This document shows, piece after piece, positions 1,185 through 64,000 of a stretch of 64,000 bases of DNA. The notes beneath the pieces are model-generated. The model saw only the letters and a list, made by a program, of their open reading frames with translations, was not told the origin of the DNA and did no database searches. Positions within the stretch are counted from its first letter, which is position 1, and each line of letters begins with the position of its first letter. The DNA comes from Candidatus Staskawiczbacteria bacterium RIFOXYB1_FULL_37_44 (lineage in GTDB: Bacteria; Patescibacteriota; Minisyncoccia; Minisyncoccales; Staskawiczbacteraceae): contig MHPJ01000026.1 of the NCBI GenBank assembly GCA_001822065.1, positions 5,281 to 69,280 on the forward strand, in the 5' to 3' direction. The translations under genes were made by a program, and so were the position numbers.

Positions 1185-1212
1185 CTGGATTCCCGCTTTC
1201 GCGGGAATGACA
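1185..1212. repeat. family A palindromic element (CTGGATTCCCGCTTTCGCGGGAATGACA), intergenic copy
   Basis: Exact core is repeated 10 or more times in the window, with 8-bp stem ATTCCCGC/GCGGGAAT. Confidence 0.9.
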
Positions 1213-1221
1213 TGAGAAAAT

Positions 1222-2781
1222 TTATTTTCTGACTTTTTCAGTTACCCAAAATCCCATATAACGACCAAGCGCCAAGCGTATTTGAGCGTCTAAAGCCGGT
1301 AAAGATCCGAACAAAATTAAAGTTACTGGCAAAAATATCCATTGCAAAAAAACAGTGGATTTTTTAAACCATCTCAAATACCATTTCATTGTTTTTGGAA
1401 CTGGCGGGAGGAGCCAAGTGCTCAAAATTGCCGACACAAACATTCCCACCATTGAAATGGTCATAATTTGGCTGGTTAAAATTGGCAAGTTAAAAGATAA
1501 AACCGTAAAGTTGAATTTTTTTCCGCCCAAAAGTATCGGCAGCCAGCCTAATAAAAACAATAAAATAGCCGCCGTAGCCCAAGACCAAAATCCGTCTAAA
1601 ATTGTGTAAAGATGCCCGATTTTTTCCCGCAGAGATATTTTCTTATTATTTAAAAAACCAAACATCATATATGGAATTTCGGCTACGCCCCATGCCCAGC
1701 GCTTTTGCTGTTTGTACTGGTTTATTATTGTCCGCCATAAATTTTTTGCCATAACAGCGTCCATTGAAGCCAAATAATACATTGGAACTACCCGGTAATT
1801 TCCGTCATAATTTAAGTATGCTTTCCAAAAAATTCGCGAATCATCCATAACCACATTAAACGGATATCCCACCTCAAAAAAAACTTTGCCTGGCGTTGAA
1901 TGCGAAGAATAAGTAGTAAGCTTTTCCGATCTCTCCTGTTGTATCATTTGCCAAAAAGTATTTGAAGTTGAAACCACGCGCGCAAAAGCTGAAGCTGACC
2001 AAATATTATTGTTGTAAACCGGCACTGGCTGGTAGCTGGTATTTTCGGGATTTTCTTCTGTCAAATAGTGCCATGTTAAGCAAGAGAAATATTGTGGGAA
2101 AACTTTTGTATCAATATCAAAAGTTGAAACCAAGATATTTTCGTAAGGAATTTTTAATTTATCAACAATCTTTTCTTTTACTTCTCTGCCCGCAAAAGCA
2201 GTGTTTGATCCTTTTCCAGCAATTTCGCCTTTTGAATTTTCAGGATGAATTGAAATCAAAAATTTAAAAAAACTTCCGGAATATTTTTTGGCAACAGCTC
2301 TTGCCTGTTTTTCAAATTTTTCTCCGGCGCGTTCTTCAACTGCCAAAACCACTATCATTTTTTCTTTTGGATATTCGGATTTAATTATTGATTCTATGCT
2401 TTCTTCAATAATTTCTTGCGACTCTTTATATGTTGGCAGAATAATTATGTGGCAAATATTTTTCCACTTCGGCCTGCCGGAGCCTTGGCGAAGGTGGCGC
2501 AACTCCGCCAGCCAATTTATTTTCATATTTTTTTTAACCCTTAAATAACCGAAAATCTGGTGCATTGAAAAATAAAATATTCTGAAAAGATAGTAAAAAC
2601 AAAAACAGATAATAAATATTGCCACCCAGGAAGGCTCGATCCAAGAAAAAACAAAAACACTAAAAAGTGTGCCCAAACTCAGAATTGCCGGAATCATTTC
2701 AAAAAACCTATACAACCACCTCTCTTTACGGTTTTTTATGTCGTTGGCTTTTGAGATATTTAAATACTCGCTCTTTTCCAT
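1222..2781 (-). CDS. membrane glycosyltransferase family 2 (start trimmed to MEKSEYLN)
   Basis: Multi-TM N-terminus and a GT2-like core (IIILPTYKESQEI...). The longer listed ORF runs through the tRNA-Glu gene, so its N-terminus is rejected. Contains an in-frame family F GC-rich insert at about 2463-2497. Confidence 0.6.
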   Translation of the reverse strand: MEKSEYLNISKANDIKNRKERWLYRFFEMIPAILSLGTLFSVFVFSWIEPSWVAIFIICFCFYYLFRIFYFSMHQIFGYLRVKKNMKINWLAELRHLRQGSGRPKWKNICHIIILPTYKESQEIIEESIESIIKSEYPKEKMIVVLAVEERAGEKFEKQARAVAKKYSGSFFKFLISIHPENSKGEIAGKGSNTAFAGREVKEKIVDKLKIPYENILVSTFDIDTKVFPQYFSCLTWHYLTEENPENTSYQPVPVYNNNIWSASAFARVVSTSNTFWQMIQQERSEKLTTYSSHSTPGKVFFEVGYPFNVVMDDSRIFWKAYLNYDGNYRVVPMYYLASMDAVMAKNLWRTIINQYKQQKRWAWGVAEIPYMMFGFLNNKKISLREKIGHLYTILDGFWSWATAAILLFLLGWLPILLGGKKFNFTVLSFNLPILTSQIMTISMVGMFVSAILSTWLLPPVPKTMKWYLRWFKKSTVFLQWIFLPVTLILFGSLPALDAQIRLALGRYMGFWVTEKVRK

Positions 2782-2783
2782 AG

Positions 2784-2858
2784 TGGCCCCAACCGGATTT
2801 GAACCGGTGTTCTTGGCTTGAAAAGCCAGTGTACTAGACCAGGCTATACGATGGGGCC
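2784..2858 (-). tRNA. tRNA-Glu (anticodon UUC)
   Basis: Reverse complement folds as a cloverleaf: acceptor GGCCCCA/TGGGGCC, anticodon loop TTTTCAA, T-loop TTCAAAT, discriminator A, no encoded CCA. Confidence 0.8.
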
Positions 2859-2918
2859 GGATATTTTTTACTCTATCACAAAATTGATTTTTTTCAAGTT
2901 TTAGGTTAAAAACAACAT

Positions 2919-4070
2919 ATGAAAATACTTGCAATAGAAACATCTTGCGATGATACCGGAGTGGCAATTTTAGAAGTATCGAACCCGCCTTCGCAAAGTT
3001 TCGGCGAGGCAAGGCCCGTTTTTAGCGTTTTATCAAATAAAATTGCTTCGCAAATTGAAATTGGAAAAAAATACGGAGGAGTTTATCCGATGATGGCAAA
3101 AAGAGAGCATGAAAAAAATTTGGCGCCAACTTTACAGACAGCATTAAAAGAAGCAAAAGTAATAGAAAAAGGTATAAACTTAATTGCGGTTACAAACGGG
3201 CCGGGGCTGGAGCCTTGTTTGTGGGTTGGAGTAAATTTTGCAAAAGATTTGGCAAAAAAATGGAATATTCCAATAGTTCCTGTAAATCACATCGAGTCCC
3301 ACATCTTGGTAAACTTACTGTCATTGCGAGGAGGACAGCAGTCCGACGTGGCAATCCAGTTCCCAGCAATCGCACTTGTTGTAAGCGGCGGGCACACACA
3401 ATTAATTTTGGTTGAAAAAATAAAAAAATATAAAATTCTTGGCGAAACAAGAGATGATGCGGCCGGAGAATGTTTTGATAAATGCGCAAAAATTTTAGGA
3501 TTGGAATATCCGGGTGGTCCAATTATTTCCCAGCTCGCCTCAAACGCTGTCATTCCCAGCTTGACTGGGAATCCAGAGTCCGTGCACAAACCCCTAGATT
3601 CCCGCTTTCGCGGGAATGACATACATCTTCCCAGACCAATGCTTAACACAAAAGATTATGATTTTAGTTTCTCCGGTTTAAAAACCGCCGTTCTGTATCA
3701 CCACAAAAAACAAGATGAAAAAACACAGAAATCAAAAAAATATATTGCAGAAATGGCAGCAGAAATACAGCAAGCCATAATTGATGTTTTGCTAAAAAAA
3801 ACAATAAAAGCCGCAAAAGATTATAAAGTAAAATCAATAATTCTGGGCGGAGGCGTTTCAGCCAACACAGAACTTCGCAAACAATTTCAGTCTGCCGCAT
3901 ATCGTCATTGCAAGGGCGAAGCCCGAAGCAATCTACGCCTAATTTATCCTCCGACAGATTTAAGCACAGATAACGCAGTAATGACCGCCATCACCGGCTA
4001 TTTCCATCGCAATAAAAAAACCGCCTGGCGCAAACTCAAAGCTGACGCTAATTTACGAATCGGAGAATAA
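2919..4070 (+). CDS. tsaD: tRNA N6-adenosine threonylcarbamoyltransferase TsaD (Kae1/YgjD family) carrying three in-frame repeat-derived insertions
   Basis: MKILAIETSCDDTGVAI, VSGGHT and SGGV motifs. About 45 aa longer than typical; the extra segments map onto family A/B repeats at 3318-3358, 3547-3623 and 3903-3933. Confidence 0.85.
   Translation: MKILAIETSCDDTGVAILEVSNPPSQSFGEARPVFSVLSNKIASQIEIGKKYGGVYPMMAKREHEKNLAPTLQTALKEAKVIEKGINLIAVTNGPGLEPCLWVGVNFAKDLAKKWNIPIVPVNHIESHILVNLLSLRGGQQSDVAIQFPAIALVVSGGHTQLILVEKIKKYKILGETRDDAAGECFDKCAKILGLEYPGGPIISQLASNAVIPSLTGNPESVHKPLDSRFRGNDIHLPRPMLNTKDYDFSFSGLKTAVLYHHKKQDEKTQKSKKYIAEMAAEIQQAIIDVLLKKTIKAAKDYKVKSIILGGGVSANTELRKQFQSAAYRHCKGEARSNLRLIYPPTDLSTDNAVMTAITGYFHRNKKTAWRKLKADANLRIGE
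3318..3358. repeat. family B half-element inside tsaD, in frame (encodes SLRGGQQSDVAIQ)
   Basis: GTCATTGCGAGGAGG...GACGTGGCAATCCAG. Confidence 0.8.
3547..3623. repeat. composite family A-variant plus A element inside tsaD, in frame (encodes ...SLTGNPESVHKPLDSRFRGNDIH)
   Basis: GTCATTCCCAGCTTGACTGGGAATCCAGAGT followed by CTAGATTCCCGCTTTCGCGGGAATGACA. Confidence 0.8.
3903..3933. repeat. family B-like element inside tsaD, in frame (encodes YRHCKGEARSN)
   Basis: CGTCATTGCAAGGGCGAAGCCCGAAGCAATC. Confidence 0.6.
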
Positions 4071-4096
4071 ATGCTAAAATTATAAAATAATAAACT

Positions 4097-6211
4097 ATGG
4101 AATTGCCCTCGCAATATAATGCAAAAGATGTAGAGGATAAAATTTATAAACTCTGGGAAGAGAGCGGTTTTTTTAATCCCGATAATTTACCTATCAATAA
4201 AATTCGAAATTCGAAATTAAAAATTCGAAATTTCTGTATTATAATGCCTCCAGCAAACGCCAACGGAAATCTGCACGCAGGACATGCTTTGGTTATGACG
4301 ATTGAAGACATTATGACCCGATATAAAAGAATGCGCGGATTTAAAACTTTATGGCTTCCTGGGCTAGATCATGCCGGTTTTGAAACTCAAGTTGTTTACG
4401 AAAAAAAACTTGAAAAAGAAGGAAGATCTCGCTTTCAAATTGAACCTGAACAACTTTACAAAGAAATTTTTGAATTTACAGAAAATAACAAAAAAAACAT
4501 CAAAAACCATGTTAAAAAAATGGGAGCCAGTTGTGACTGGTCCCGTGAAAAATTTACATTGGACAAAGATATTATAAAAGTTGTATATGAAACTTTTGAA
4601 AAATTAAAAAAAGACAAATTAGTTTACAGGGGTAAAAAAATAATCAATTGGTGTCCAAAACACCAAACTTCCCTTTCAGATCTAGAAACCAGCGACACGG
4701 AAAAAACAGACAAATTTTATTATTTAAAATATGGCCCCTTTACAATTGCCACAGCCAGGCCCGAAACAAAATTTGGCGACAAATATGTTGTAATGCATCC
4801 AAAAGATAAAAGATACAAAGATTACACGCATGGCCAAAAAATAGAACTGGAATGGATAAACGGTAAAATTACTGCAACAATTATAAAAGACGAGGCTATT
4901 GATATAGATTTTGGAACCGGAGTTATGACAATTACTCCGTGGCACGACGCAACCGATTTTGAAATTGCTGAAAGGCACAATTTGGATAAAGAGCAAATTA
5001 TAGATTTTTATGGAAAACTTTTGCCAATTGCCGAAGAATTTTCGGGAATGAAAATTTTAGAAGCCCGGGCAAAAATTATTGAAAAACTTCAGTCAAAAGG
5101 CTTGGTTGAAAAAATTGAAGAAAATTACAAACACATTGTTAAAACTTGCTACAAATGCAATTCTTTAATAGAACCTCAAATAAAAGAGCAGTGGTTTTTA
5201 AAAATGAAACCCTTGGCAGCGCCTGCCATAAAAGCAATTGAAAAAAACCAAATAAAATTTATTCCAAGCCACTACAAAAAGATTGCCATGCATTGGCTGA
5301 AAAATATTATTGATTGGAACATTTCACGGCAAATTGTTTGGGGAATTCCTATTCCCGGAGATGAAGAAGGCCAAGTTTTTGACACGTGGTTTTCTTCCGG
5401 ACAATGGCCATATGCTACACTAAAAACAACAGGAAAAAATGATTTTAAAACTTTTTTTCCAACAGATGTTATGGAAACCGGCGGCGATATAATTTTTTTC
5501 TGGGTCTCAAGAATGATTATGCTTTCGCTTTACACAACAAAAAAAATTCCTTTTAAAAATGTTTATTTGCACGGGATGGTTTTAGACGCCAAAGGCCAAA
5601 AAATGTCTAAAAGCAAAGGTAACGTAATAAACCCCTTAGAACTAGCAGAAAAATATGGCGCTGATGCTTTGCGCATGGGATTGGTGGTTGGGAATACTCC
5701 CGGCACTTCCCTGCCGCTGGATGAAAATAAAATAAAAGGCTATAGAAATTTTGCCAATAAAATTTGGAACGCGTCACGGTTTGTTTTGCAGCAAACCGCG
5801 GAAGTGTCATTGCGAGGAGGGAGCGAAGCGACTGACGTGGCAATCCAGAGTAATAGATTGCCACGTCGCTCCGCTCCTCGCAATGACAGACTAACAAAAA
5901 AAGATAAGAGAATATTGAACGATTTTAAAAAACAAGCAAAAGAAATTACAAAAGATATGGACAATTACAGGTTTTATTCTGCCGCTGAAAAAATTTATCA
6001 TTATTTTTGGCACACATTCTGCGACAAAATTATTGAAGACAGTAAAAAGGGAGAAGTTTCGCAAGCAACGCTTTTGGAAATTTTGACAGATTGTTTAAAA
6101 ATACTCCATCCATTTATGCCCTTTATAACCGAAGAAATCTATCAGCAGTTGCCTCCGCCAGCTGGCGGAAAAAAACAAAAGTGTTTAATGATTGAAAAAT
6201 GGATTTTGTAA
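4097..6211 (+). CDS. valS: class I aminoacyl-tRNA synthetase, ValS-like (valyl-tRNA synthetase)
   Basis: PPANANGNLHAGHA (HIGH-type) and KMSKSKGNV (KMSKS) motifs. Also carries in-frame inserts: TTCGAAA heptamer repeats at 4199-4233, family B at 5805-5888, and a CCGCCAGCTGGCGG palindrome at 6155-6168. Confidence 0.6.
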   Translation: MELPSQYNAKDVEDKIYKLWEESGFFNPDNLPINKIRNSKLKIRNFCIIMPPANANGNLHAGHALVMTIEDIMTRYKRMRGFKTLWLPGLDHAGFETQVVYEKKLEKEGRSRFQIEPEQLYKEIFEFTENNKKNIKNHVKKMGASCDWSREKFTLDKDIIKVVYETFEKLKKDKLVYRGKKIINWCPKHQTSLSDLETSDTEKTDKFYYLKYGPFTIATARPETKFGDKYVVMHPKDKRYKDYTHGQKIELEWINGKITATIIKDEAIDIDFGTGVMTITPWHDATDFEIAERHNLDKEQIIDFYGKLLPIAEEFSGMKILEARAKIIEKLQSKGLVEKIEENYKHIVKTCYKCNSLIEPQIKEQWFLKMKPLAAPAIKAIEKNQIKFIPSHYKKIAMHWLKNIIDWNISRQIVWGIPIPGDEEGQVFDTWFSSGQWPYATLKTTGKNDFKTFFPTDVMETGGDIIFFWVSRMIMLSLYTTKKIPFKNVYLHGMVLDAKGQKMSKSKGNVINPLELAEKYGADALRMGLVVGNTPGTSLPLDENKIKGYRNFANKIWNASRFVLQQTAEVSLRGGSEATDVAIQSNRLPRRSAPRNDRLTKKDKRILNDFKKQAKEITKDMDNYRFYSAAEKIYHYFWHTFCDKIIEDSKKGEVSQATLLEILTDCLKILHPFMPFITEEIYQQLPPPAGGKKQKCLMIEKWIL
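4199..4233. repeat. tandem ATTCGAA heptamer repeats in frame in valS (encode RNSKLKIRN)
   Basis: Copies of the TTCGAA palindrome; the same repeat sits inside murE at 28269-28298. Confidence 0.7.
5805..5888. repeat. family B full palindromic element (84 bp), in frame in valS (encodes SLRGGSEATDVAIQSNRLPRRSAPRNDR)
   Basis: Long inverted repeat GTCATTGCGAGGAGGGAGCGAAGCGACTGACGTGGCAATC ... GATTGCCACGTCGCTCCGCTCCTCGCAATGAC. 84 bp equals 28 codons. Confidence 0.9.
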
Positions 6212-7377: not shown

Positions 7378-7734
7378 ATGACAGAAGCAACTCTTACAAA
7401 AAAAGATATCAAAGAACTTTTGGGCGACCAAACAAAACAAATTGAACAACGGTTATCGGATCAAACAAAACAAATTGAACAACGGTTATCGGATCAAACA
7501 AAACAAATTGAACAACGGTTATCGGATCAAACGGATGTTATTTTGACTGCTGTTGATGAAAGAATAAAAGCTCTGGATTTAAAATTTACTGAGAAATTTG
7601 ATAAACTTACTACTACTCTTGATAATTTTTTAAAAAGAATGACAGATATTGAAGACGAGTTTACAATGATGCGCAACGATATAAACAGAATTAAAAAAGC
7701 TATCAAAGAAAAACTCGGCGTAGAACTATTTTAA
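7378..7734 (+). CDS. hypothetical coiled-coil protein containing three perfect 33-nt tandem repeats (DQTKQIEQRLS x3)
   Basis: Triplicated repeat at 7426-7524. Confidence 0.4.
   Translation: MTEATLTKKDIKELLGDQTKQIEQRLSDQTKQIEQRLSDQTKQIEQRLSDQTDVILTAVDERIKALDLKFTEKFDKLTTTLDNFLKRMTDIEDEFTMMRNDINRIKKAIKEKLGVELF
7426..7524. repeat. 3 x 33-nt perfect tandem repeat (in frame)
   Basis: gatcaaacaaaacaaattgaacaacggttatcg repeated three times. Confidence 0.9.
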
Positions 7735-18952: not shown

Positions 18953-18992
18953 AAATTACGGTTTTTTGCCGAACGGCAAAAAACCGTAATTT
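18953..18992. repeat. family D 40-bp palindrome, inverted relative to the copy at 18291
   Basis: Centre is GCCGAACGGC here versus GCCGTTCGGC at 18291. Confidence 0.9.
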
Positions 18993-19141
18993 ATATAACT
19001 TGGTGCGAATACGTTGGTGTAAAAACTACTGGCTTGCAATAATTAAAATATAGTGTATTATAGGGTAATTAGTAATTAACACTGCTGGCCTGCAGCAGAA
19101 GAGACAAATAAACAGGTGTTTTATTTTGCATTAATACTTAT

Positions 19142-20236
19142 ATGACAAAAGAAAATAATCCGCCAGCTGGCGGAAAAAAAACCGCAGAAGCAATTAATCC
19201 CCTTCAAGTTGGGGCTACTATTGAAGGAAAGGTTGTAGCAAGAGACCGCTCGTCTCTTTTTATTGATTTAGGAATTCACGGAACCGGCATAATTTACGGC
19301 AGAGAATTTTACAGTGTAAAAGATGTAATAAAAAATCTTGATATTGGAGATAAGGTTTTTGCCAAAATTGTTGAGGTTGAAAATGACGAAGGCTATAGAG
19401 AACTTTCATTGAGAGACGCCACAAAAGAAATTAGCTGGCAAAGATTAAAAGAATTAAAAGACAGCGGACAAATTTTGAGTGTAAGAATTACCGGCGTAAA
19501 CAAAGGCGGACTTTTGACGGCCATAGACAATATACAGGCATTTTTGCCTGTATCGCAATTGGCTCCAGAACACTACCCCAGAGTAATTGACGCCGACAAG
19601 CAAAAAATATTAAAAGAATTGCAAAAATTTATCGGCAAAACTTTGGAAGTTAAAATTCTTGATTTGCTTGCTCAAGAAAATAAGTTAATTTTATCTGAAA
19701 AAGCAAAGTCAGAAGAAAAAACAAAAGAAACTCTAAAAAATTATTCCAAAGGCGACACAATTGACGGCGAAATAACCGGCATTGCAGACTTTGGCGCTTT
19801 TATAAAGTTTCCTTTTCCAGCAGAAAATAAAAATGACCAAATTGAAGGCTTAATCCATATATCGGAATTGGACTGGCAATTGGTTGAAAATCCGGCTGAA
19901 GTTGTAAAAGTCGGCGAAACTGTAAAAGCAAAAATAATAGACATAAATAACAATCAAGTTTTCCTTTCCTTAAAAGCGTTAAGAGCAAATCCTTGGGAAG
20001 AAATTGAAAAGCAATACAAAAAAAGCGATGTAATAAAAGGGAAAGTGACTAAATTTTCGGCTTTCGGCGCGTTTGTGGAAATAATGCCAAAGATCAGAAG
20101 CCTATGCCACATTTCCGAATTTGAATCAAAAGAAAAAATGGAAGAACAATTAAAACTTGGCGAAACTTACGATTTTCAAGTTTTGTTAATTGAACCAAAA
20201 GAGCACAGAATGAGCTTAAAATTGGTTGCAAAATAA
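19142..20236 (+). CDS. rpsA: 30S ribosomal protein S1 (short form with several S1 domains)
   Basis: Repeated S1-domain pattern (G..V.G.V......G.FV.L). In-frame CCGCCAGCTGGCGG palindrome at 19160-19173 encodes PPAGG. Confidence 0.75.
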   Translation: MTKENNPPAGGKKTAEAINPLQVGATIEGKVVARDRSSLFIDLGIHGTGIIYGREFYSVKDVIKNLDIGDKVFAKIVEVENDEGYRELSLRDATKEISWQRLKELKDSGQILSVRITGVNKGGLLTAIDNIQAFLPVSQLAPEHYPRVIDADKQKILKELQKFIGKTLEVKILDLLAQENKLILSEKAKSEEKTKETLKNYSKGDTIDGEITGIADFGAFIKFPFPAENKNDQIEGLIHISELDWQLVENPAEVVKVGETVKAKIIDINNNQVFLSLKALRANPWEEIEKQYKKSDVIKGKVTKFSAFGAFVEIMPKIRSLCHISEFESKEKMEEQLKLGETYDFQVLLIEPKEHRMSLKLVAK

Positions 20237-23967: not shown

Positions 23968-24041
23968 TGTCATTCCCGCGGACGCGGGAATCCAGATTAA
24001 ATTAAAGTACTCTGGATCCCCATTTCCATGGGGATGACAAG
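23968..24041. repeat. family A (inverted orientation, GTCATTCCCGCGGACGCGGGAATCCAG) plus variant (CTGGATCCCCATTTCCATGGGGATGACA)
   Basis: Intergenic, downstream of uvrB. Confidence 0.85.
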
Positions 24042-24048: not shown

Positions 24049-26013
24049 TTATTTTAGTTTAGAAATTAGGTCGCGGAGTTCGACCGCTCTTTCAAAGTCT
24101 AAATTTTTAGCGGCAATTTTCATTTCTTTTTCTAAAAGTTTTTTATCGTGAACTAATTCAAATTCCGAAACAACATCTTCTTTTTTTGAAAATCCCCACT
24201 CTCTAATATCTGAAACAATTGTTTTTGGAATTATTTTATTTTTTTTATTGTAAGCTTCTTGAATTTTTCTGCGCCGGTTAATTTCGCTAATAGCAGATTG
24301 CATAGACATTGTTGTTTTATCTGCGTACAAAATTACTCTGCCTTGCAAATGCCTGGCAGCCCGGCCCATTGTTTGAATTAGGGTTGTTTTGTTGCGTAAA
24401 AAGCCTTCTTTATCCGCATCCAAAATTGCAACCAAGGAAACTTCGGGCAAGTCAATCCCCTCTCTTAATAAATTTATTCCAACCAGCACATCAAATTCTC
24501 CCTGCCTTAGTTTTTTTAAAATTTCCGGTCTTTCCATTGTTTTAATTTCAGAATGCAAATATTGGGTTTTAATTTTATGCTCTGTTAAATAATCTGCAAT
24601 TTCTTCGGACAATCTTTTGGTAAGCGTTACAACCAGTACACGATGTTTTTTTGAAATTTCTTTCTTAATCTCTTCTATTAAATCTTTAATCTGATTTTCT
24701 GTTTTTTTTATTTCAATAGACGGCTCTAACAATCCGGTTGGCCGGATTAATTGTTCTATAATATTTTTACCGGTTTTTTGCTTCTCAAAGTCGGCCGGAG
24801 TTGCAGAAACATAAATTGTTTGTTTTTGTCTTTTCTCAAATTCTGTAAAAGTTAAGGGTCGGTTGTCCACCGCAGAAGGCAGGCGAAATCCAAAATTAAT
24901 TAAAGTTTCTTTTCTTATTCTGTCTTGCGCAGACATTGCCCTAATTTGCGAAACAGAAATATGCGATTCATCAATAAACATCAAAGAGCCGTCCTTATTA
25001 AAATAACTGAAATAATCAACCAATGAAAACGGGGCGCTTCCCGGTTTTCTAAATTCCAAATGGCTGGAATAGTTTTCAATGCCGTGGCAAGAGCCAGTTT
25101 CTTTTAAAAGCTCTAAATCATAATTTGTTCTTTGCTCTAACCTTTCTGCTTCTAATAATTTTTTTTCTTTATTTAAAACTGCCAATCTTTCCTGCAGTTC
25201 TAATTTTATATTTTCAATTGCAATATTTATTTTACTTTGCGGAGCAACCCAAAAGGTGGCTGGGAATAGTTTGTAGTTTGCAATTGGTGTCATTGCGAGC
25301 GAGCCCGCAGGTCGAAGATCCTGTAAGGGCGAGCGTGGCAATCCAGAGTGTAACGAATAGATACTGTCTCCCTCAAATTCAACGCGTAATATTTTTTCTC
25401 CGGTAACAATATAAATTTCAATAATATCTCCCCTAACGCGAAAAGTTCCGGGCTTGAATTCTATATCATTTCTTTGGTATTGCAGGTTTGTTAAAAGCAA
25501 AATAAAATCTTTACGTTTTATTTTTTGTCCAATTTTTATTTCTAAAGAGACATTTTCATAATTTTCAGGCGAGCCAATGTTATATATGCACGAAACCGAA
25601 GCAACCACAATTACATCTTTTCTTTGCGTTACATCTTGCACGGCAGCGTGGCGTAGCCTGTCAATTTCTTCGTTTATTTTTGCGTCTTTTTCTATATATG
25701 TGTCGCTTTGCGGAATATAGGCTTCGGGCTGGTAATAATCGTAATAAGAAACAAAATAATGCACTGCATTGTTTGGGAAAAATTCTTTAAATTCTTGATA
25801 TAGTTGGGCGGCCAAAGTTTTGTTTGGGGATATTACAAGTGTTGGCTTGTTTATTTTTTCAATTACATTTGCCATTGTCATTGTTTTTCCAGATCCGGTA
25901 ACTCCCAAAAGCACTTGGTCTTTTACTCCCAATTTTAAATTTTCAGACAGCTGTTTTATTGCCCGCGGTTGATCTCCTGCCGGTTTGAATTTTGATTTTA
26001 GTTCAAACTTCAT
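24049..26013 (-). CDS. uvrB: excinuclease ABC subunit B (start trimmed to MKFELKSKFKPAGDQP)
   Basis: PAGDQP, GVTGSGKT and helicase motifs. The listed 35-aa N-terminal extension is read-through of repeat elements. Internal in-frame family B insert at 25288-25348. Confidence 0.9.
   Translation of the reverse strand: MKFELKSKFKPAGDQPRAIKQLSENLKLGVKDQVLLGVTGSGKTMTMANVIEKINKPTLVISPNKTLAAQLYQEFKEFFPNNAVHYFVSYYDYYQPEAYIPQSDTYIEKDAKINEEIDRLRHAAVQDVTQRKDVIVVASVSCIYNIGSPENYENVSLEIKIGQKIKRKDFILLLTNLQYQRNDIEFKPGTFRVRGDIIEIYIVTGEKILRVEFEGDSIYSLHSGLPRSPLQDLRPAGSLAMTPIANYKLFPATFWVAPQSKINIAIENIKLELQERLAVLNKEKKLLEAERLEQRTNYDLELLKETGSCHGIENYSSHLEFRKPGSAPFSLVDYFSYFNKDGSLMFIDESHISVSQIRAMSAQDRIRKETLINFGFRLPSAVDNRPLTFTEFEKRQKQTIYVSATPADFEKQKTGKNIIEQLIRPTGLLEPSIEIKKTENQIKDLIEEIKKEISKKHRVLVVTLTKRLSEEIADYLTEHKIKTQYLHSEIKTMERPEILKKLRQGEFDVLVGINLLREGIDLPEVSLVAILDADKEGFLRNKTTLIQTMGRAARHLQGRVILYADKTTMSMQSAISEINRRRKIQEAYNKKNKIIPKTIVSDIREWGFSKKEDVVSEFELVHDKKLLEKEMKIAAKNLDFERAVELRDLISKLK
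25288..25348. repeat. family B half-element in frame in uvrB (encodes LHSGLPRSPLQDLRPAGSLAMT)
   Basis: TGTCATTGCGAGCGAGCCCGCAGG...GCGTGGCAATCCAGAGTG. Confidence 0.85.
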
Positions 26014-26034: not shown

Positions 26035-26117
26035 TGTCATTGCGAGGAGCCCGCAGGCGACGTGGCAATCTAGAGTATGTGATAAAACTCTGGATTCCCG
26101 CTTTCGCGGGAATGACA
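26035..26117. repeat. composite family B half plus family A element filling the uvrB-ruvA divergent intergenic region
   Basis: TGTCATTGCGAGGAGCCCGCAGGCGACGTGGCAATCTAGAGT ... CTCTGGATTCCCGCTTTCGCGGGAATGACACC. Confidence 0.9.
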
Positions 26118-26126
26118 CCTAAAAAT

Positions 26127-27062: not shown

Positions 27063-27137
27063 ACTTTGGGCGTTTTGTCCCGTCATTGGCGGGGCTTTTT
27101 TTTACGCAAAATATGTGATATTATTTGTATAGTTTCT

Positions 27138-27226
27138 GTCATTGCGAGGAACAAAGTGACGAAGCAATCTATAGTAAAAGTATAAATTCTGGATTGCCAC
27201 GCTCGCTTCGCTCGCTCGCAATGACA
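27138..27226. repeat. family B full element (long inverted repeat) upstream of murE
   Basis: TGTCATTGCGAGGAACAAAGTGACGAAGCAATC ... TCTGGATTGCCACGCTCGCTTCGCTCGCTCGCAATGACA. Confidence 0.85.
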
Positions 27227-28485: not shown

Positions 28486-29445
28486 ATGAAAATACAAGAC
28501 ATTTATAATTTAATGATAAAAATGGGAATGGATGTTGATTTTAGGGGCAGAGAAGGCGTGCAAAAACTTTTGGATAATAAAAAGAAAAAATTTGAGAAAT
28601 TGAGCGAGAAAGAAAAAGAAGATCTTGATAAAGACGCTTTAGAAAATCCATATTTAGACTCTGGAGTTTATAATATTTCAGATGACAAAGAAATAAAAAG
28701 AGTTTTAGTGGGAATAGATATTTCACCGGCAGAAATTTTAATTGCAAAAGAGCTGGGCGATATTGATTTGGTAATTGCCCATCATCCTGTTGGAAAAGGT
28801 TTGGCGCAATTGGCAGATGTTATGGATTTGCAGGCCGATGTTTGCAATTATTACGGCGTGCCAATAAATGTGGCAGAAGGATTGATGCGCGAAAGAATTT
28901 CTGAAGTAGCCAGAGGAGTAAATTCTTCAAACCATCAAAGGACAGTTGACGCCGCAAAATTAATGAAAGTTAATTTAATGAATTCGCATACGCCTTGTGA
29001 TAATTTGGCTGCCAAATTTTTAAAAAATTTGGTTGAGAATCCGCCAGCTGGAGAAAAACCCGAGACAGTCGGCGAGCTGATAAATATTTTAAAAGAAATT
29101 CCAGAATACAAAGAGGCGATGAAAATTGGAGTTGGTCCTAAAATTTTTGTGGGAACTGCAGATAACCGATGCGGAAAAATTGCTTTGTCTGAAATTACAG
29201 GAGGCACAGAAGGCTCCCCAAAACTTTATGAAAAAATGGCGCAGGCCGGAGTTGGCACGGTTGTCGGAATGCATATTTCTGAAGAACACAAAAAGGAAGC
29301 AGAGCTGGCTCACGTGAACATTGTAATTGCCGGGCATATTTCTTCCGATTCTTTGGGCGTAAATTTATTTGTTGACGAACTTGAAAAGCAAGGCATTGAA
29401 ATTGTGGCATGCTCCGGTTTTACCCGCTTCTCAAGGGTAAAATAA
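28486..29445 (+). CDS. Nif3-like dinuclear metal centre protein (YbgI/GTP cyclohydrolase 1 type 2 family-like)
   Basis: VIAHHPV and C-terminal GHISSD motifs; in-frame CCGCCAGCTGGAG variant palindrome at 29041-29053. Confidence 0.45.
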   Translation: MKIQDIYNLMIKMGMDVDFRGREGVQKLLDNKKKKFEKLSEKEKEDLDKDALENPYLDSGVYNISDDKEIKRVLVGIDISPAEILIAKELGDIDLVIAHHPVGKGLAQLADVMDLQADVCNYYGVPINVAEGLMRERISEVARGVNSSNHQRTVDAAKLMKVNLMNSHTPCDNLAAKFLKNLVENPPAGEKPETVGELINILKEIPEYKEAMKIGVGPKIFVGTADNRCGKIALSEITGGTEGSPKLYEKMAQAGVGTVVGMHISEEHKKEAELAHVNIVIAGHISSDSLGVNLFVDELEKQGIEIVACSGFTRFSRVK

Positions 29446-39567: not shown

Positions 39568-39794
39568 AATTTTTATTTTATTTACTTCTTTGATTTATGT
39601 CCTTAAAAGAATACTCCGTATTTCTGCGACCGCATTCTTATGGAGTATCACAATATCTCATGCGGCAATTTTTCCAAACCCAAACCTGTTTAAAGTAAGC
39701 TCAATATCTATAACCATAAATTTATTTTTTAAATTTATTTTATAGGCTCAACGCCGTTGAGCCGATAGATTCTGAAGTAATGGATTCTGAAGTA

Positions 39795-39830
39795 TAGTAA
39801 GTTTTTTGCCTCGAGGCAAAAAACTTACTA
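39795..39830. repeat. family D palindrome TAGTAAGTTTTTTGCCTCGAGGCAAAAAACTTACTA
   Basis: 36-bp perfect palindrome inside a 490-bp noncoding stretch. Confidence 0.85.
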
Positions 39831-40056
39831 TTTTAGTCCTAGCTTTTTAATTAATTTTCCCCGACCATAAATTTATTTTTTACAATATTATTTTTACTAC
39901 CTCTTTTTCACTCTAGTGAAAAACACGTACTATTTTACTCCAACATCTCAACTCCATTAAACTACAGTGCAATAACTGTTCTCGCACTGTGGTTTTTTAA
40001 GTTCTAATAAATGGTAGGCCACCACTTCACCAACCCACATTTTACCAATAGACTGA

Positions 40057-43230: not shown

Positions 43231-43304
43231 GGGCTCGTAGTTTCATGGAGTTAAAATTCCGTCTTTGACACACGGAGTAGCGGGTGCAAATCCCGCCGAG
43301 TCCA
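43231..43304 (+). ncRNA. tRNA-like element with G3:U70 acceptor stem, T-arm GCGGG/TGCAAAT/CCCGC and an aberrant 9-nt anticodon loop (CUUUGACAC)
   Basis: Perfect 7-bp acceptor pairing GGGCTCG/CGAGTCC and discriminator A, but the anticodon and D arms are non-canonical and no CCA is encoded. Confidence 0.4.
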
Positions 43305-43318
43305 CCCCAAAGAATCTG

Positions 43319-43534
43319 TCATTTTTTGACGGATTTTTTGTTACTCGGCTTTACTGCCTTAAATTCCATTTCTACTTCATTTCTCTGTTTACAAAACTTA
43401 CAAACAAAATCGTTACCAAATCCAAATTGATATGGCAACCCTATTTCGTAAAACATTTCTTTTTTATTCACAAGGTTGTTTTCCTTTCCGCAATGGGCAC
43501 AATTAAGTTTTTTTATGTAATATGTATCTGTCAT
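43319..43534 (-). CDS. small Cys4 zinc-ribbon protein
   Basis: CAHCGK...CKFCKQ. Confidence 0.3.
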   Translation of the reverse strand: MTDTYYIKKLNCAHCGKENNLVNKKEMFYEIGLPYQFGFGNDFVCKFCKQRNEVEMEFKAVKPSNKKSVKK

Positions 43535-43539
43535 AATTT

Positions 43540-43569
43540 CTGGATTCCCGCTTTTGCGGGAATGACACT
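43540..43569. repeat. family A element (T variant in loop), intergenic
   Basis: TCTGGATTCCCGCTTTTGCGGGAATGACAC. Confidence 0.85.
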
Positions 43570-43625
43570 GTATTATTTACGGTAGCTTTTTACCATAATC
43601 ATGGTAGATTTTCACCATGACAACT

Positions 43626-48781: not shown

Positions 48782-48810
48782 ATTTCAACGCATTATTTAT
48801 TACACGGACA

Positions 48811-48849
48811 CTGGATTGCCACGCCCCGTGCGCGGGGCTCGCAATGACA
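48811..48849. repeat. family B right-half element with internal GCCCCGTGCGCGGGGC hairpin
   Basis: CTGGATTGCCACGCCCCGTGCGCGGGGCTCGCAATGACA. Confidence 0.8.
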
Positions 48850-49152
48850 CTAAGTTAAAACTAAGATAAAGCTGGTGTTTTGGGAGGATTTTAGGGAATG
48901 CGCAATATTTTTTTCCATTTTGATAAATACGCCCGGTAGCATTTCAATATTTTCTCCGGCATAAGTAAAAACGCCCTTTCCCTCAATTACATAAACAAAA
49001 CCCTGTTTTGTTGAAGTATGCTCTGAAATTTCTGTGCCTTCTGCCATAGAAAACAAAGTAATATCAAGCTTTTCGCTTTTCTCAATTACTTTGCTCAAAA
49101 TTCCTCCGGCAGAATATGAAATATTTTCTTTTAAATTCATTTGCTTTGTCAT
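48850..49152 (-). CDS. cupin-domain small protein
   Basis: Double-stranded beta-helix pattern (G..EH..T..GFVYVIEGKG). Confidence 0.5.
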   Translation of the reverse strand: MTKQMNLKENISYSAGGILSKVIEKSEKLDITLFSMAEGTEISEHTSTKQGFVYVIEGKGVFTYAGENIEMLPGVFIKMEKNIAHSLKSSQNTSFILVLT

Positions 49153-49265
49153 TCCGGGCTCGACCCGGAATCTATAACTTTGTTTATTCCACGGACTCTG
49201 GATTCCCGCTTTCGCGGGAATGACACACCTGTAGCGGTTTTTTGCCTCGAGGCAAAAAACCGCTA
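49147..49265. repeat. cluster of family C variant (GTCATTCCGGGCTCGACCCGGAATC), family A copy (49198-49226) and family D palindrome (49232-49265)
   Basis: Three palindromic elements packed between the cupin gene and the ABC transporter gene. Confidence 0.85.
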
Positions 49266-51169: not shown

Positions 51170-51772
51170 TTATTCTAAGATTTTAGTCAAATCTTTTTTA
51201 AACTGATTAAAATCCTGAAATACAATGCTTTTTATTCCAAGGGCTTCGGCTGATTTTGTGTTTCTTTCTTTGTCGTCAGTAAATACTGCTTCATCTGCTT
51301 TTACATTTAATTTTTTAAGGGCGTGCTGGTAAATCTTTGGGTTTGGTTTTGATATTTTTAAGTTATATGAGTTCACGACGATATCAAATAAATGATAAAT
51401 TTTAAAAACGTTTTTTATTAGGTTTTCCAGTTCTGAATTATAATTTGATAAAATAGCCGTTTTATATTTCTTTTTTAGTTCCCCTATATAATCTATCATT
51501 TCCGGCCTAACACGCACAGTTGATTTTACCTCAAGAAGAATATCATTTAGTTCTTCCGCCGCCAAATTTATTGACGGCTTGGTTTTTTCATAGAACTCAA
51601 AAATAGTCTCGTATTCGGCAAGGTTAGCTCCATGGTTGTATTCGTCCAGGAGCTTTTCAAGCGAGCCATCCTCAAGTGAGTGTTTGATTTTGTGTTTTTC
51701 GTATATTTCTCTATTTCTGGTAACAATAGGTCCGTCAAAATCAAAAATTATTGCTTTAATTTCATTTTTCAT
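51170..51772 (-). CDS. HAD-superfamily hydrolase
   Basis: DxDG motif IIFDFDGPI. Confidence 0.65.
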   Translation of the reverse strand: MKNEIKAIIFDFDGPIVTRNREIYEKHKIKHSLEDGSLEKLLDEYNHGANLAEYETIFEFYEKTKPSINLAAEELNDILLEVKSTVRVRPEMIDYIGELKKKYKTAILSNYNSELENLIKNVFKIYHLFDIVVNSYNLKISKPNPKIYQHALKKLNVKADEAVFTDDKERNTKSAEALGIKSIVFQDFNQFKKDLTKILE

Positions 51773-52008
51773 AAAAATCTTTTATTCGTGAATGCGTACC
51801 CGGAACTTGATTTCAGATACTTTTCAAAATTGTATGCTTTTGCTTTTTCTAAAAAAGCACAATACCAAATTAATTTGTATGGTCTTTTTGAATCAGAATA
51901 TTTTGCATTGCCAGAATTATGTTCTGCCAAACGCCTTTTTAAATCAGAAGTAACTCCAATATATCTACTTTTATCTTTCTCACTTTGCAAAATATATACG
52001 TAAAACAT
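51769..52008 (-). CDS. GIY-YIG nuclease-domain small protein
   Basis: FYVYILQS...YIGVTSDLKRRLAEHN. Confidence 0.65.
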   Translation of the reverse strand: MFYVYILQSEKDKSRYIGVTSDLKRRLAEHNSGNAKYSDSKRPYKLIWYCAFLEKAKAYNFEKYLKSSSGYAFTNKRFL

Positions 52009-52136
52009 AATTTACAGCCCCACTTCGCAAGGCCACACTACGCCAAGGCTTCGCGTGGCATGCTTCGCGGGACACCACTTCGCTTTAAACTTATCATCTA
52101 TTATTATCGGCTATATTTCAATGGTGCTTGCACCGC

Positions 52137-52156
52137 GTAGCTCTGAGTAATCTCAG
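52137..52156. terminator. perfect hairpin GCTCTGAG-taat-CTCAGAGC adjacent to the tRNA-Ala 3' end
   Basis: 8-bp stem, 4-nt loop. Confidence 0.4.
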
Positions 52157-52163
52157 AGCGAAG

Positions 52164-52237
52164 TGGTGGACCTGGGCGGAATCGGACCGCCGCCTCGTCA
52201 ATGCGAATGACGCATAATACCACTTTACTACAGGCCC
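52164..52237 (-). tRNA. tRNA-Ala (anticodon CGC) with encoded CCA
   Basis: Reverse complement: acceptor GGGCCTG/CAGGTCC with G3:U70, anticodon stem CGTCA/TGACG, loop TTCGCAT, discriminator A, CCA. T-loop is TCCGATT (C at position 55, non-canonical). Confidence 0.65.
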
Positions 52238-52715: not shown

Positions 52716-52744
52716 TCTGGATTCCCGCTTTCGCGGGAATGACA
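52716..52744. repeat. family A element, intergenic (preceded by TGTCATA half)
   Basis: CTCTGGATTCCCGCTTTCGCGGGAATGACA. Confidence 0.9.
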
Positions 52745-60608: not shown

Positions 60609-60636
60609 CTGGATTCCCGCTTTCGCGGGAATGACA
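60609..60636. repeat. family A element, intergenic
   Basis: CTGGATTCCCGCTTTCGCGGGAATGACA. Confidence 0.9.
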
Positions 60637-62025: not shown

Positions 62026-62033
62026 CGCCGCTC

Positions 62034-62146
62034 TTGTCATTGCGAGGAGCCCTGAGCGAAGTCGAAGGGCGACGTGGCAATCCAGAGTGAAAGCACAGAC
62101 TTCTAGATTGCCACGTCAGTCGCTTCGCTCCTTCCTCGCAATGACA
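62034..62146. repeat. family B full element (113 bp long inverted repeat), intergenic
   Basis: TGTCATTGCGAGGAGCCCTGAGCGAAGTCGAAGGGCGACGTGGCAATCCAGAGT ... CTAGATTGCCACGTCAGTCGCTTCGCTCCTTCCTCGCAATGACA. Confidence 0.9.
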
Positions 62147-62179
62147 GTAAACAAAAACAGAGCCTCAAAGCCCTGCTTT

Positions 62180-63250
62180 TTATTTGTAACTAATTGTAGA
62201 TCCCACCGGATATTTTGCCAGAGGATTTCTGGCTCCTAAAACTTGGAAGTGCACGTGGCATCCCGTGGCGTTTCCTGTGCGGCCTATTAAGCCTATTCTG
62301 TCTCCGGTGATTACTTTGTCTCCTGGTTTTACAAAAACATTTTGGAAGTGTCCGTAATAAGTGACTGTTCCATTTGAATGCAAAATTGTAACGTAGTTTC
62401 CCATTCCTAAATTCCAAGCGTTATTATAAACCGCCCTTTGGACAATGCCCGAAGCTGCTGCATAAACTGACGTTCCACAGCTGCTTGCAACGTCAACCGC
62501 GTTATAATAATGCAATCCTTGGGTAACACGGCCTTGCGTTGGGAAAATGAAGAAATTATCAGCCAAAGGAACTTGGTTGTTTATTATGGGCGATGCTTTT
62601 TTGGGCATTGTTCCGCCCGGCACAATTAAAATGTCTCCAATATAAATGTCGTCTTGATTTGCCAAATCATTATACGAAATTATGTCAGGAGACTGCGCTT
62701 TATATGTTTGGGAAATTCCCGAAAGAGTATCTCCGTTTTTTACAACGTGTAAAATTCCATCTGTAGGCAATATAGACAAACTTTGCCCGACTTTTATGGT
62801 TGAAGAGCTTGTCAAATCATTTGCCCAGAGCAAAGTGTTAACAGAAATTTTATAAGAATTTGCAATTGATTGGAAAGTGTCTCCCGGCTGTACCGTGTAA
62901 TCAACTACGTCTTTTTGGTTTTGATTTGCGCCCCCAAAAACATCTCCCAAAACTTTTCCCGAAACAATATAGGGAGCTGAAACTCCGCCAATGGTATTGT
63001 CTTGTATTATTTTTAAATCAGGTGTTTCCAATGCAATAGCGCTTACCGGGCTGTAAAACAAACTGTCGCTGTTTTGGTTGCTGTGCTTATTAAAAAAAGA
63101 ATTAAAAAATACAATCTTGCCATTTCCAAAACTATTAACATTGGCCGAAGTATCGCAAGAAGCATACATTGTTCCAAATAAAAAAACTGCGCCAAGCACA
63201 AAGTAGCCAGCTTTTATATTTTTTAATGTTTTGTTAATAAATTTTAACAA
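62180..63250 (-). CDS. secreted LysM-domain M23 metallopeptidase
   Basis: Two LysM-like segments (GDTFQSIANSY.., GDTLSGISQTY..) and M23 motifs (HYYNAVD...HFQNVFVKPGDKV..G.TGNATGCHVHFQV). Confidence 0.8.
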   Translation of the reverse strand: MLKFINKTLKNIKAGYFVLGAVFLFGTMYASCDTSANVNSFGNGKIVFFNSFFNKHSNQNSDSLFYSPVSAIALETPDLKIIQDNTIGGVSAPYIVSGKVLGDVFGGANQNQKDVVDYTVQPGDTFQSIANSYKISVNTLLWANDLTSSSTIKVGQSLSILPTDGILHVVKNGDTLSGISQTYKAQSPDIISYNDLANQDDIYIGDILIVPGGTMPKKASPIINNQVPLADNFFIFPTQGRVTQGLHYYNAVDVASSCGTSVYAAASGIVQRAVYNNAWNLGMGNYVTILHSNGTVTYYGHFQNVFVKPGDKVITGDRIGLIGRTGNATGCHVHFQVLGARNPLAKYPVGSTISYK

Positions 63251-63339
63251 CTTATTTCAAGGTTATCACTTTCAAGAGCTTTGGTCAATCGTTTCATTCA
63301 TAAGTTATACACAGCTAAATTTATGTTATACTAAATAAA

Positions 63340-64000
63340 ATGGATTTAACTTCTCCAACAAACATAAAAGAACTTTTGGCAAAATACAAAACAAGTCCGT
63401 CAAAAAGGCTTGGCCAGAATTTTTTGATAGATAAAAATGTTTTAGATAAAATTATTACATCGGCCGATCTAAGGCCAAGTGATACCGTTTTAGAAATAGG
63501 GCCGGGTATTGGAACACTCACGCAAGAACTTGCTAAAAGCGCAGGACAAGTAATTGCAATTGAAAAAGACCGCGCAATGGTTGAAATTTTATCCGAAACT
63601 TTAAAAGACTATAAAAACACAGAAATTATTCAAGGCGACATTTTAAAATTAAGCTTCGCGTCATTGCGAGGAAAGAGCGAAGCGACTGACGAAGCAATCC
63701 AGAGTTATAGATTGCCGCGTCGCCTACTGGCTCCTCGCAATGACGAAGTCAAAAATTACAAAGTTGTCGCAAATATACCGTACTATCTTACATCGCCATT
63801 GATTCGAAAATTTCTGGAGCTGAATCCGCCAGATGGCGGACCGCCAAGCGAAATGGTTTTAATGATACAAAAAGAAGTTGCCCAACGCATTTGCGCCAAA
63901 CCACCGGAAATGTCTTTACTGGCGGTTTCGGTGCAATTTTACGCAGATGCAAAAATTGTTTCTTATGTCTCAAAAAATTGCTTCTGGCCGGCCCCCAAAG
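63340..64000 (+). CDS. ksgA: 16S rRNA (adenine1518/1519-N6) dimethyltransferase KsgA/RsmA, 5' part (3' end outside the window) with in-frame family B insertion
   Basis: RLGQNFLID, LEIGPGIGTLT, NIPYY motifs. Insert SFASLRGKSEATDEAIQSYRLPRRLLAPRNDEV corresponds to the repeat at 63660-63744. Confidence 0.8.
   Translation, partial: MDLTSPTNIKELLAKYKTSPSKRLGQNFLIDKNVLDKIITSADLRPSDTVLEIGPGIGTLTQELAKSAGQVIAIEKDRAMVEILSETLKDYKNTEIIQGDILKLSFASLRGKSEATDEAIQSYRLPRRLLAPRNDEVKNYKVVANIPYYLTSPLIRKFLELNPPDGGPPSEMVLMIQKEVAQRICAKPPEMSLLAVSVQFYADAKIVSYVSKNCFWPAPK
63660..63744. repeat. family B full element in frame in ksgA
   Basis: GTCATTGCGAGGAAAGAGCGAAGCGACTGACGAAGCAATCCAGAGTTATAGATTGCCGCGTCGCCTACTGGCTCCTCGCAATGAC. 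Confidence 0.9.

Follow-up and report, generated by a model that had tools for sequence, protein, structure and literature searches.

Hairpin repeats of the Neisseria Transformation Sequence type lie in frame within housekeeping genes of a Staskawiczbacteria genome

Background

Two related families of short palindromic repeats, here called A and B, recur along a 64,000-nt stretch of the genome of Candidatus Staskawiczbacteria bacterium RIFOXYB1_FULL_37_44 (contig MHPJ01000026.1, positions 5,281 to 69,280; hereafter the window), and several copies are carried in frame by conserved housekeeping genes. The host, a groundwater bacterium with a very small genome, belongs to the Candidate Phyla Radiation (CPR). 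The closest described repeat by sequence is the 28-nt Neisseria Transformation Sequence (NTS), CGTCATTCCCGCGMAVGCGGGAATCYRG, which contains the older dRS3 repeat (PMC11893778; Nat Commun 2025;16:2388). The same study defines a wider Ssn-related motif (SRM; pattern HGTCWYN(0-2)YYVSBRHN(0-5)WNVSBRGN(0-2)RNCYNB) and reports more than 300 motifs per genome in Rickettsia, Wolbachia, Neisseria, Sphingomonas and others. SsnA, a GIY-YIG protein of 94 residues, binds the NTS hairpin and cleaves next to it, but only when the DNA is single-stranded, and the arrangement NTS-ssnA-NTS resembles an insertion sequence (PMC11893778). A role of NTS in the transformation of Neisseria has been demonstrated there as well.

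The closest described repeats by behaviour are the Rickettsia palindromic elements (RPEs), palindromic repeats of about 100-150 bp lying in frame in Rickettsia protein-coding genes (Ogata et al. 2000 and 2002, summarised in PMC10969869). RPEs and SRMs may be related, since Rickettsia is listed among the SRM-rich genomes. A third group, the repetitive extragenic palindromes (REPs) and their hairpin-forming doublets (REPINs), offers a parallel in architecture. The elements described here are RPE-like in behaviour, NTS/SRM by sequence and REP/REPIN-like in architecture. A and B are likely, in our view, to belong to a cross-phylum NTS/SRM class, as short hairpin repeats that are non-autonomous, expanded in one lineage and were retained in genes where they entered protein loops.

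Results

Family A, GTCATTCCCGCGAAAGCGGGAATCCAG, matches the NTS consensus at 27 of 28 positions in eight copies, and the window contains 10 sites of the SRM pattern against 0.06 expected. Within the 64 kb, the A core CTGGATTCCCGCTTTCGCGGGAATGACA has 10 matches at up to three mismatches, 7 of them exact (none expected from shuffles), and the B end GTCATTGCGAGG has 13 against 0.14 expected. The likeness to NTS/SRM includes the family A sequence, the hairpin, the high copy number, the occurrence of both solo units and inverted pairs, and the presence of a small stand-alone GIY-YIG gene. In contrast, the CPR is a group absent from the text of PMC11893778, and in-frame coding insertions are not discussed there. 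Our literature searches likewise returned no description of SRM/NTS hairpins in CPR genomes or of their in-frame insertion into genes, and nothing relevant on the B sequence or on in-frame palindromic repeats in the CPR.

When each locus was read, the catalogue listed 27 hairpin units at 18 loci, which together take up about 1.08 kb (1.7%) of the window. This agrees with the original prediction of about 25 hairpin elements, whose coordinates, lengths and peptides were also found to be right. By type, there are five solo A units, five inverted doublets in which a variant hairpin is paired with a canonical A, four full B palindromes (84-112 bp) and four B half units, giving nine inverted doublets and nine solo or half units. 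Single units measure 28-45 bp and doublets 72-112 bp. Every unit shares the frame (T/C)GTCAT[T/C][G/C]C - stem-loop - G[G/C][A/G]ATCCAG, and the stem variants differ on both sides yet stay paired (CCCGC/GCGGG, CCCAGC/GCTGGG, CCCCGA/TCGGGG, CCGGGC/GCCCGG). The termini are inverted repeats, TGTCATT...AATGACA, with TG...CA ends. As single-stranded DNA, family A is predicted to form an 8-bp hairpin (-9 kcal/mol, z = -5.6) and each B doublet one long hairpin of 84-112 nt (-36 to -40 kcal/mol). A gathering-threshold Rfam scan of the window found only tRNAs and transfer-messenger RNA (tmRNA), and no family covers the repeats. Stop-free reading frames are common, five of six for A and four of six for full B. 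Canonical A units lie on one strand in 9 of 10 cases whatever the gene direction (P ~0.02). GC skew in the window tracks gene direction, so that replication direction, and hence the meaning of this bias, is not inferable from skew.

The sequence is not confined to this lineage. When one genome per species (596 Gb) was scanned, the 21-base core GGATTCCCGC-N4-GCGGGAATGAC gave at least 120 loci and at least 164 matches, where about 0.27 are expected by chance. Among the matches listed, the core spans dozens of phyla, including Alpha-, Beta-, Gamma- and Deltaproteobacteria, Bacteroidota, Chloroflexota, Planctomycetota, Nitrospirota, Elusimicrobia, cyanobacteria, several CPR lineages and one metagenome-assembled genome (MAG) labelled Nanoarchaeota. 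Cultured isolates of Sphingomonas, Azospirillum, Massilia, Duganella, Devosia, Povalibacter and Neisseria are among them, and the cross-phylum matches listed are mostly in the same inverted-doublet arrangement. B-type doublets outside the CPR were seen in Roseiarcus and at four other loci in 825 kb of sequence examined, and the B element gave one weak match to plasmids. An approximate Rickettsia-type hairpin had no Rickettsia match among plasmids. Concatenated element peptides had no match in the protein database. Separately, IMG/VR yielded at least 120 stretches of viral or prophage contigs with the NTS core (L197-L276), some with five copies; phages are therefore possible vehicles of cross-phylum spread.

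Seven of the 18 loci (39%) are intragenic; they fall in five genes, and all are stop-free and keep the frame. Three are in tsaD. The first, a B half unit at 3319-3359 (plus strand), encodes SLRGGQQSDVAIQ at about residues 135-147 of TsaD. The second, an inverted doublet at 3548-3622, combines a variant stem, CCCAGC..GCTGGG, with a canonical A and encodes VIPSLTGNPESVHKPLDSRFRGND. The third is a degenerate B half unit at 3903-3934 (plus strand) encoding RHCKGEARSN. Across one insert junction the predicted protein reads ...NLLSLRGGQQSDVAIQFPAI.... In valS, a full B palindrome at 5805-5888 spans 84 bp, exactly 28 codons, folds as DNA into one hairpin of -36 kcal/mol and encodes SLRGGSEATDVAIQSNRLPRRSAPRND. 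The minus-strand gene uvrB holds a B half unit of 62 bp at 25288-25349 (plus strand), read as SGLPRSPLQDLRPAGSLAMT. A solo A at 28064-28091 (minus strand) encodes LDSRFRGND in murE, and a full B palindrome of 87 bp at 63659-63745 encodes SLRGKSEATDEAIQSYRLPRRLLAPRND in ksgA. The element DNA is thus read in various frames and orientations (SLRG.., RHCK.., VIPS.., LDSRF.., SGLPRS..), which indicates that the DNA is conserved and not a peptide module.

The corresponding peptides are missing from orthologues of all five proteins. Many of 24 aligned TsaD homologues, 64-85% identical to the window protein, lack all three segments, and relative to TsaD of T. maritima the window protein is about 7, 20 and 7 residues longer at the three insert sites. 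In an AlphaFold2 model of moderate quality (mean predicted local distance difference test score, pLDDT, 66.6) all three TsaD insert peptides are coil with pLDDT below 50. The 28-codon B insert is absent from the syntenic, 78% identical ValS of a relative (L121), although the valS site has diverged so far in relatives that neither its exact target sequence nor any target-site duplication can be recovered. The UvrB element is absent from 22 of 22 orthologues (60-82% identical), in which the loop is variable, and the MurE unit from 14 of 14, where the loop ranges from 0 to more than 30 residues. The KsgA insert is absent from a 70% identical homologue (P0242) and from B. subtilis KsgA, and most of 150 KsgA representatives align in two pieces, skipping residues 106-137. 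A second ksgA assembly (P0241, 99% identical) differs within the B element (LPRRPYRIFDLRAPRNDE against LPRRLLAPRNDE) and is divergent beyond that point; either strains are polymorphic within the hairpin or the palindrome has caused an assembly problem. Alignments with orthologues and solved structures place all intragenic sites in loops of variable length, as had been expected. No intein or intron signature was found at the inserts, and no Rfam family matches them.

In these respects the elements behave like RPEs. Both are palindromes in frame in unrelated housekeeping genes, give extra peptides compatible with function, occur between genes as well and can mislead annotation (PMC10969869). The units here are shorter (28-112 bp against about 100-150 bp), the phylum is different and the peptides have no NCBIfam or Pfam hit. 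Specifically, ten element peptides in several frames gave none at E <=10, NCBIfam probably including RPE models. The parallel with RPEs drawn in the original prediction thus holds for behaviour, whereas the elements could not be assigned to an RPE family by sequence and the host is a CPR bacterium and not a member of the Rickettsiales.

In-frame insertion is also found elsewhere. On plasmid pMC4 of Sphingopyxis indica, an annotated ileS (L196, 2452-2528) contains the exact 28-mer, and the doublet is read in frame as RHPRESGDPERASANPTLDSRFRGND. Spot checks drawn from the at least 120 cross-phylum loci (L022, L037, L079, L082, L067) gave further in-frame doublets. Four were verified with Pfam: those in a Massilia sp. 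LXY-6 Mur ligase, in TruB from a Pseudomonadota MAG, in tRNA-guanine transglycosylase from a Parcubacteria MAG and in a DNA methylase. Another, in UvrA, was recognised by eye alone. From these sequences, in-frame insertion is a general property of this hairpin class, beyond one genome. The original prediction had regarded such insertions as unusual for a reduced genome. They do occur in this one, but the same doublet is in frame in Alpha- and Betaproteobacteria and in other CPR bacteria too.

Within the CPR, A-type signature peptides are present in 13 of the best 120 TsaD homologues, and the same loops are used repeatedly. TsaD site 1 holds a full B unit in P0036 and VIPAKAGIQ in P0005, and the KsgA site of P0244 reads VIPAKAGIQ...SGMT. 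The TsaD and KsgA loops thus hold different elements by lineage, and insertion loops also hold unrelated short repeats. The loops are hot spots, most simply because they are permissive places, and some apparent insertions in variable loops may in fact be replacements.

Other repeats also lie in coding sequence. A third repeat family, the 16-bp perfect palindrome TCCGCCAGCTGGCGGA, has 5 copies in the window against 0 expected, at 6154-6169, 19159-19174, 27988-28003, 29040-29055 and 63825-63840. All are coding (valS, an S1 protein gene, murE, a NIF3-like gene and ksgA, respectively) and encode PPAGG-like extras of three to five residues that close orthologues lack. Tandem repeats of 7 nt, of the AAATTCGAAAT type, are in frame in valS at 4200-4232 (KIRNSKLKIRNF) and in murE at 28266-28298 (RNSKFEIRN); close orthologues lack them also, and in sister lineages similar A/T-rich tandems occupy the same valS and murE loops.

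The other 11 of the 18 loci are in non-coding sequence, which makes up only about 12% of the window (binomial P ~1.5e-6), and this excess suggests that genic insertions are selected against but not eliminated. Intergenic copies are therefore the majority, in keeping with the original prediction of related palindromes with many copies between genes. Four are solo A units on the minus strand. One, at 1185-1212, is an exact NTS-type unit reading TGTCATTCCCGCGAAAGCGGGAATCCAG forward on that strand, 9 nt past the stop of a gene ending at 1222; another, at 43540-43567, has one mismatch and lies between tRNA-Ser and the nusA stop; a third, at 52717-52744, is between tRNA-Pro and a SET-domain gene; and the fourth, at 60609-60636, makes up most of a 41-nt spacer between two plus-strand genes. 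An inverted doublet at 17037-17111 (variant stem CCCCGA..TCGGGG with canonical A) separates two minus-strand genes. A second, in the opposite orientation, occupies 23968-24039 in the convergent spacer from a gene ending at 23922 to the uvrB stop. A third, at 49147-49226 (variant stem CCGGGC..GCCCGG with canonical A), is intergenic at the start of a cupin ORF (open reading frame). A B half unit at 48810-48849 (minus strand) lies between the cupin stop and the start of a NUDIX gene. Full B palindromes are found at 27137-27226 (90 bp), just upstream of the real murE start, and at 62035-62146 (112 bp, -39.8 kcal/mol as DNA), in a convergent spacer. Finally, a B/A composite doublet at 26035-26118, counted among the inverted doublets, fills the divergent spacer between uvrB and ruvA. 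In five relatives this spacer is 13-15 bp; in the window it is 99 bp longer, including the 84-bp doublet, and comparison of the filled with the empty spacers reveals no target-site duplication.

These copies distort gene calls, as had been anticipated for uvrB, ruvA and murE. The true starts are MKFELKSKF for UvrB, MIAFLEGKI for RuvA and MIIKSLVKKI for MurE, while mechanical ORFs extend through the elements; the terminal AATGACA supplies the in-frame ATG in all three. The false N-terminal extensions of uvrB and ruvA arise from the composite doublet and that of murE from the 90-bp palindrome. The cupin ORF at 48850-49152 (minus strand) is affected likewise, its first ATG being formed by the AATGACA of the adjacent doublet (49147-49153). 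Spurious ORFs are also created, for instance 43265-43585 over the solo A at 43540-43567. The cupin gene, which has elements on both sides, was tried as a possible Ssn and rejected, as it encodes a cupin and not a nuclease.

A and B are present in only 6 of 72 related CPR loci (378 kb), which suggests a lineage-restricted expansion. The six are three near-identical contigs of one strain (L121-L123), one from the species of the window (L124), L125 and L133. The second tsaD doublet, at 3548-3622, is orthologous in the window, L121 and L125, the TsaD of the latter being 60% identical. Its arms are identical at 27-28 of 28 positions between genomes, with the spacer and flanking codons diverged. The conservation of the arms beyond their flanks, together with a 28-mer that is 100% identical to copies in the Alphaproteobacteria Sphingopyxis and Azospirillum, indicates that the hairpin sequence is constrained or homogenised. 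It follows that identity between copies cannot date insertions or prove recent mobility.

The only candidate protein partner of the hairpins in the window is a possibly Ssn-like, stand-alone GIY-YIG nuclease gene at 51769-52008 (minus strand; 79 residues, Pfam E = 8e-18). Its product is 36% identical to a GIY-YIG ORF of 94 residues that abuts an NTS in Methylotenera (L036). The gene order is CCA-adding enzyme, tRNA-Pro, tRNA-Ala, GIY-YIG and then an ABC transporter. A link between this gene and the hairpins is plausible by analogy with SsnA, but tentative, and the gene is put forward as a candidate only.

Two observations concern the surroundings of this gene. First, in three sequences (window 52009-52172, minus strand; L193 6219-6381; L195 5632-5791) the spacer of about 165 nt that separates tRNA-Ala(CGC) from the GIY-YIG gene is structured as well as conserved, with a long-range helix from the tRNA 3' end (CCACCACTTCGCT...AGCGAAGTGGTG) and a second hairpin showing compensatory changes; it has no Rfam match. 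Second, many of the closest GIY-YIG homologues (P0121-P0240) are on very short contigs (0.4-2 kb), so that the gene may adjoin assembly-breaking repeats in many CPR genomes.

As to the rest of the window, its GC content is about 36%, and a rough ORF model that includes tRNAs and tmRNA makes about 88% of it genic. The nearest TsaD relatives are MAG proteins labelled Candidatus Staskawiczbacteria, Parcubacteria or Patescibacteria. Housekeeping genes include those for RecG, TsaD, ValS, GyrA, UvrB, RuvA, a MurE-type ligase, NusA, polynucleotide phosphorylase, the CCA-adding enzyme and KsgA, among others; these identities are supported by Pfam, and that of KsgA by matches to solved structures. GyrA (1239 residues, 12785-16504, minus strand) holds an intein (Pfam Intein_splicing, residues ~154-535). 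Four paralogous small genes (~107-117 residues) cluster at 11033-12451 on the minus strand. Their 5' regions, at the position of a signal peptide, are repeated (repeat families D2 and D3), and their syntenic counterparts in L125 and L126 have Pfam hits to T4SS_pilin/TrbC. A 33-nt tandem repeat at 7398-7529 is in frame within the ORF 7378-7734. A separate family of perfect palindromes, ACGGTTTTTTGCC..GGCAAAAAACCGT, is found at gene ends (18291-18328, 18951-18994, 39794-39831 and 49232-49265); distinct from A/B, these look like bidirectional intrinsic terminators.

Discussion

The observations are best accommodated by the following scenario. The A/B family would have expanded in a Staskawiczbacteria-like lineage, in a genome so largely genic (about 88%) that many insertions would hit genes. 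Those that persist would be the stop-free ones that keep the downstream frame and lie in variable surface loops or linkers, where they would add translated peptides to the loops, as RPEs do. Spread may have proceeded through single-stranded DNA intermediates helped by a hairpin-specific nuclease, by analogy with the GIY-YIG Ssn enzymes that cut beside NTS.

Several points weigh against this scenario. First, family B misses the SRM pattern: its units have longer, imperfect stems, and the common part is only the GTCATTGC...GCAATCCAG frame. Second, the UvrB and MurE copies look, from alignment, like replacements and not clean insertions. The 62-bp UvrB element brings a net gain of only about 5-8 residues relative to the 22 orthologues, implying that it partly replaces older loop sequence, and the MurE loop with the A unit is about as long as that of the closest orthologue (L144) and 7-8 residues longer than the shortest. 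The claim that the segments are insertions, borne out by their absence from orthologues, thus fails for these two as clean additions. Third, translation of the extra loop peptides is inferred from frame preservation alone. Fourth, no direct repeats flank the nine full elements, and no transposition event was seen in strain comparisons or element flanks. The contig of the same species (L124) is 99.8% identical to the window with no indel at elements, and L121, L122 and L123 differ only by a recombination tract, again with no element indel. Copies can be old, as far as their sequences tell, and kept by selection or gene conversion. Fifth, the GIY-YIG gene, which is shorter than SsnA (79 against 94 residues), has no A/B on either side; Ssn genes (cd10448) typically have the motif as their neighbour. 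Across Parcubacteria its conservation is 67-92%, it is syntenic in two relatives (L193 and L195), and about 16 kb sampled from each of these loci contains no A/B, although a second contig of the L193 genome, L125, carries the tsaD doublet.

Some of these points lead to an alternative, which we consider possible though doubtful: that the hairpins are kept mainly as functional host signals, for example as sites at which the conserved GIY-YIG single-stranded DNA nuclease would influence how incoming or replicating single-stranded DNA is processed, the intragenic copies being old fixed passengers. The tsaD doublet arms, more conserved than the flanking coding DNA and the spacer between the hairpins, speak for it, as do the identity of the 28-mer in Sphingopyxis and Azospirillum, the strand bias of canonical A, the highly conserved, syntenic GIY-YIG gene and the action of NTS in Neisseria transformation (PMC11893778). 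On the other hand, most related CPR loci keep the GIY-YIG gene without A/B, copy positions vary by lineage, and spacers that are filled in the window are empty in relatives. Nor was any position-specific regulatory pattern seen, and the terminators are a different palindrome.

Mobilisation by a classical transposase elsewhere in the genome, with Ssn irrelevant, is unlikely in our view. The enzyme would be of the Y1 type, as in IS200/IS605 or the REP-associated tyrosine transposases (RAYTs) of REP/REPIN systems, or of the DDE type, as in the miniature inverted-repeat transposable elements known as MITEs. The resemblance to REPs/REPINs is considerable: both are short imperfect palindromes with inverted doublets that form a long hairpin, both include decayed singlets and lack a target-site duplication, and both probably involve single-stranded DNA. 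The absence of target-site duplication fits Y1-type systems, the terminal inverted repeats are compatible with a transposase, and the 64-kb window is only part of the genome. REPs typically have a conserved 5' motif GTAG. The frame here is GTCAT...ATCCAG instead, and no Y1 or DDE domain was found when 59 window ORFs, which thus include no RAYT, were scanned against Pfam. Moreover, REPs are defined as extragenic, but 39% of the loci here lie within genes. Bacterial MITEs such as ERIC, BOX and Correia (PMC10969869) are likewise small, non-autonomous, bounded by terminal inverted repeats and occasionally in frame in genes. However, the missing target-site duplication speaks against a DDE MITE, no parent insertion sequence was seen, and a 28-nt hairpin common to many phyla differs from a lineage-specific derivative of an insertion sequence. 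The A sequence is the experimentally defined Ssn substrate (PMC11893778).

It is very improbable that the intragenic copies are metagenome assembly artefacts or are excised from RNA or protein. The genome does come from a metagenome, and strong hairpins can disturb assembly, as the difference of P0241 inside the ksgA element may illustrate. But an independent groundwater-metagenome contig of 3.1 kb, 99.8% identical to window 1418-4492, carries all three tsaD copies, so these are not an assembly error, and isolates (Sphingopyxis, Massilia) show in-frame doublets. Excision, for its part, would not require that 7 of 7 intragenic loci keep the frame without stops. That the segments are ancestral protein parts or convergent low-complexity loops is hardly credible: the second tsaD doublet is indeed common to several orthologues at 58-74% identity, yet most orthologues lack the segments, including the closely similar ValS and KsgA noted above, and the same DNA recurs between genes, in unrelated genes and in other phyla.

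Beyond the lineage expansion and loop insertion of NTS/SRM-class repeats that we favour, a wider reading can be entertained, although we would not expect it to hold in full. NTS/SRM doublets would be pan-bacterial, protein-coding selfish DNA, of which RPEs were the first-noticed case. CPR loops would be recolonised and so be a major source of length variation, and a fixed GIY-YIG Ssn-like nuclease encoded beside tRNA-Ala would spread or sustain the doublets by way of single-stranded DNA. Its Parcubacteria part, in which these hairpins are one of several repeat types colonising the loops of TsaD, ValS, MurE, KsgA and UvrB, is speculative to the same degree.

Conclusions

Protein-coding palindromes have been described as a peculiarity of Rickettsia. 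They are seen here in a CPR bacterium and, by spot checks, in Alpha- and Betaproteobacteria and other CPR bacteria. The element also has a partner enzyme class, Ssn, which became known only in 2025. Two bodies of literature are thereby connected, and the origin of RPE-like insertions can be put to the test. In practical terms, the elements lengthen gene calls (uvrB, ruvA, murE and the cupin gene), create spurious ORFs and probably fragment assemblies. Some of the length heterogeneity seen among conserved CPR proteins is explained by the inserts; TsaD homologues range from 334 to 444 residues. Finally, essential genes that carry strong hairpins, which are nuclease substrates in other bacteria, raise questions on replication, transformation and genome stability in these ultra-small bacteria.

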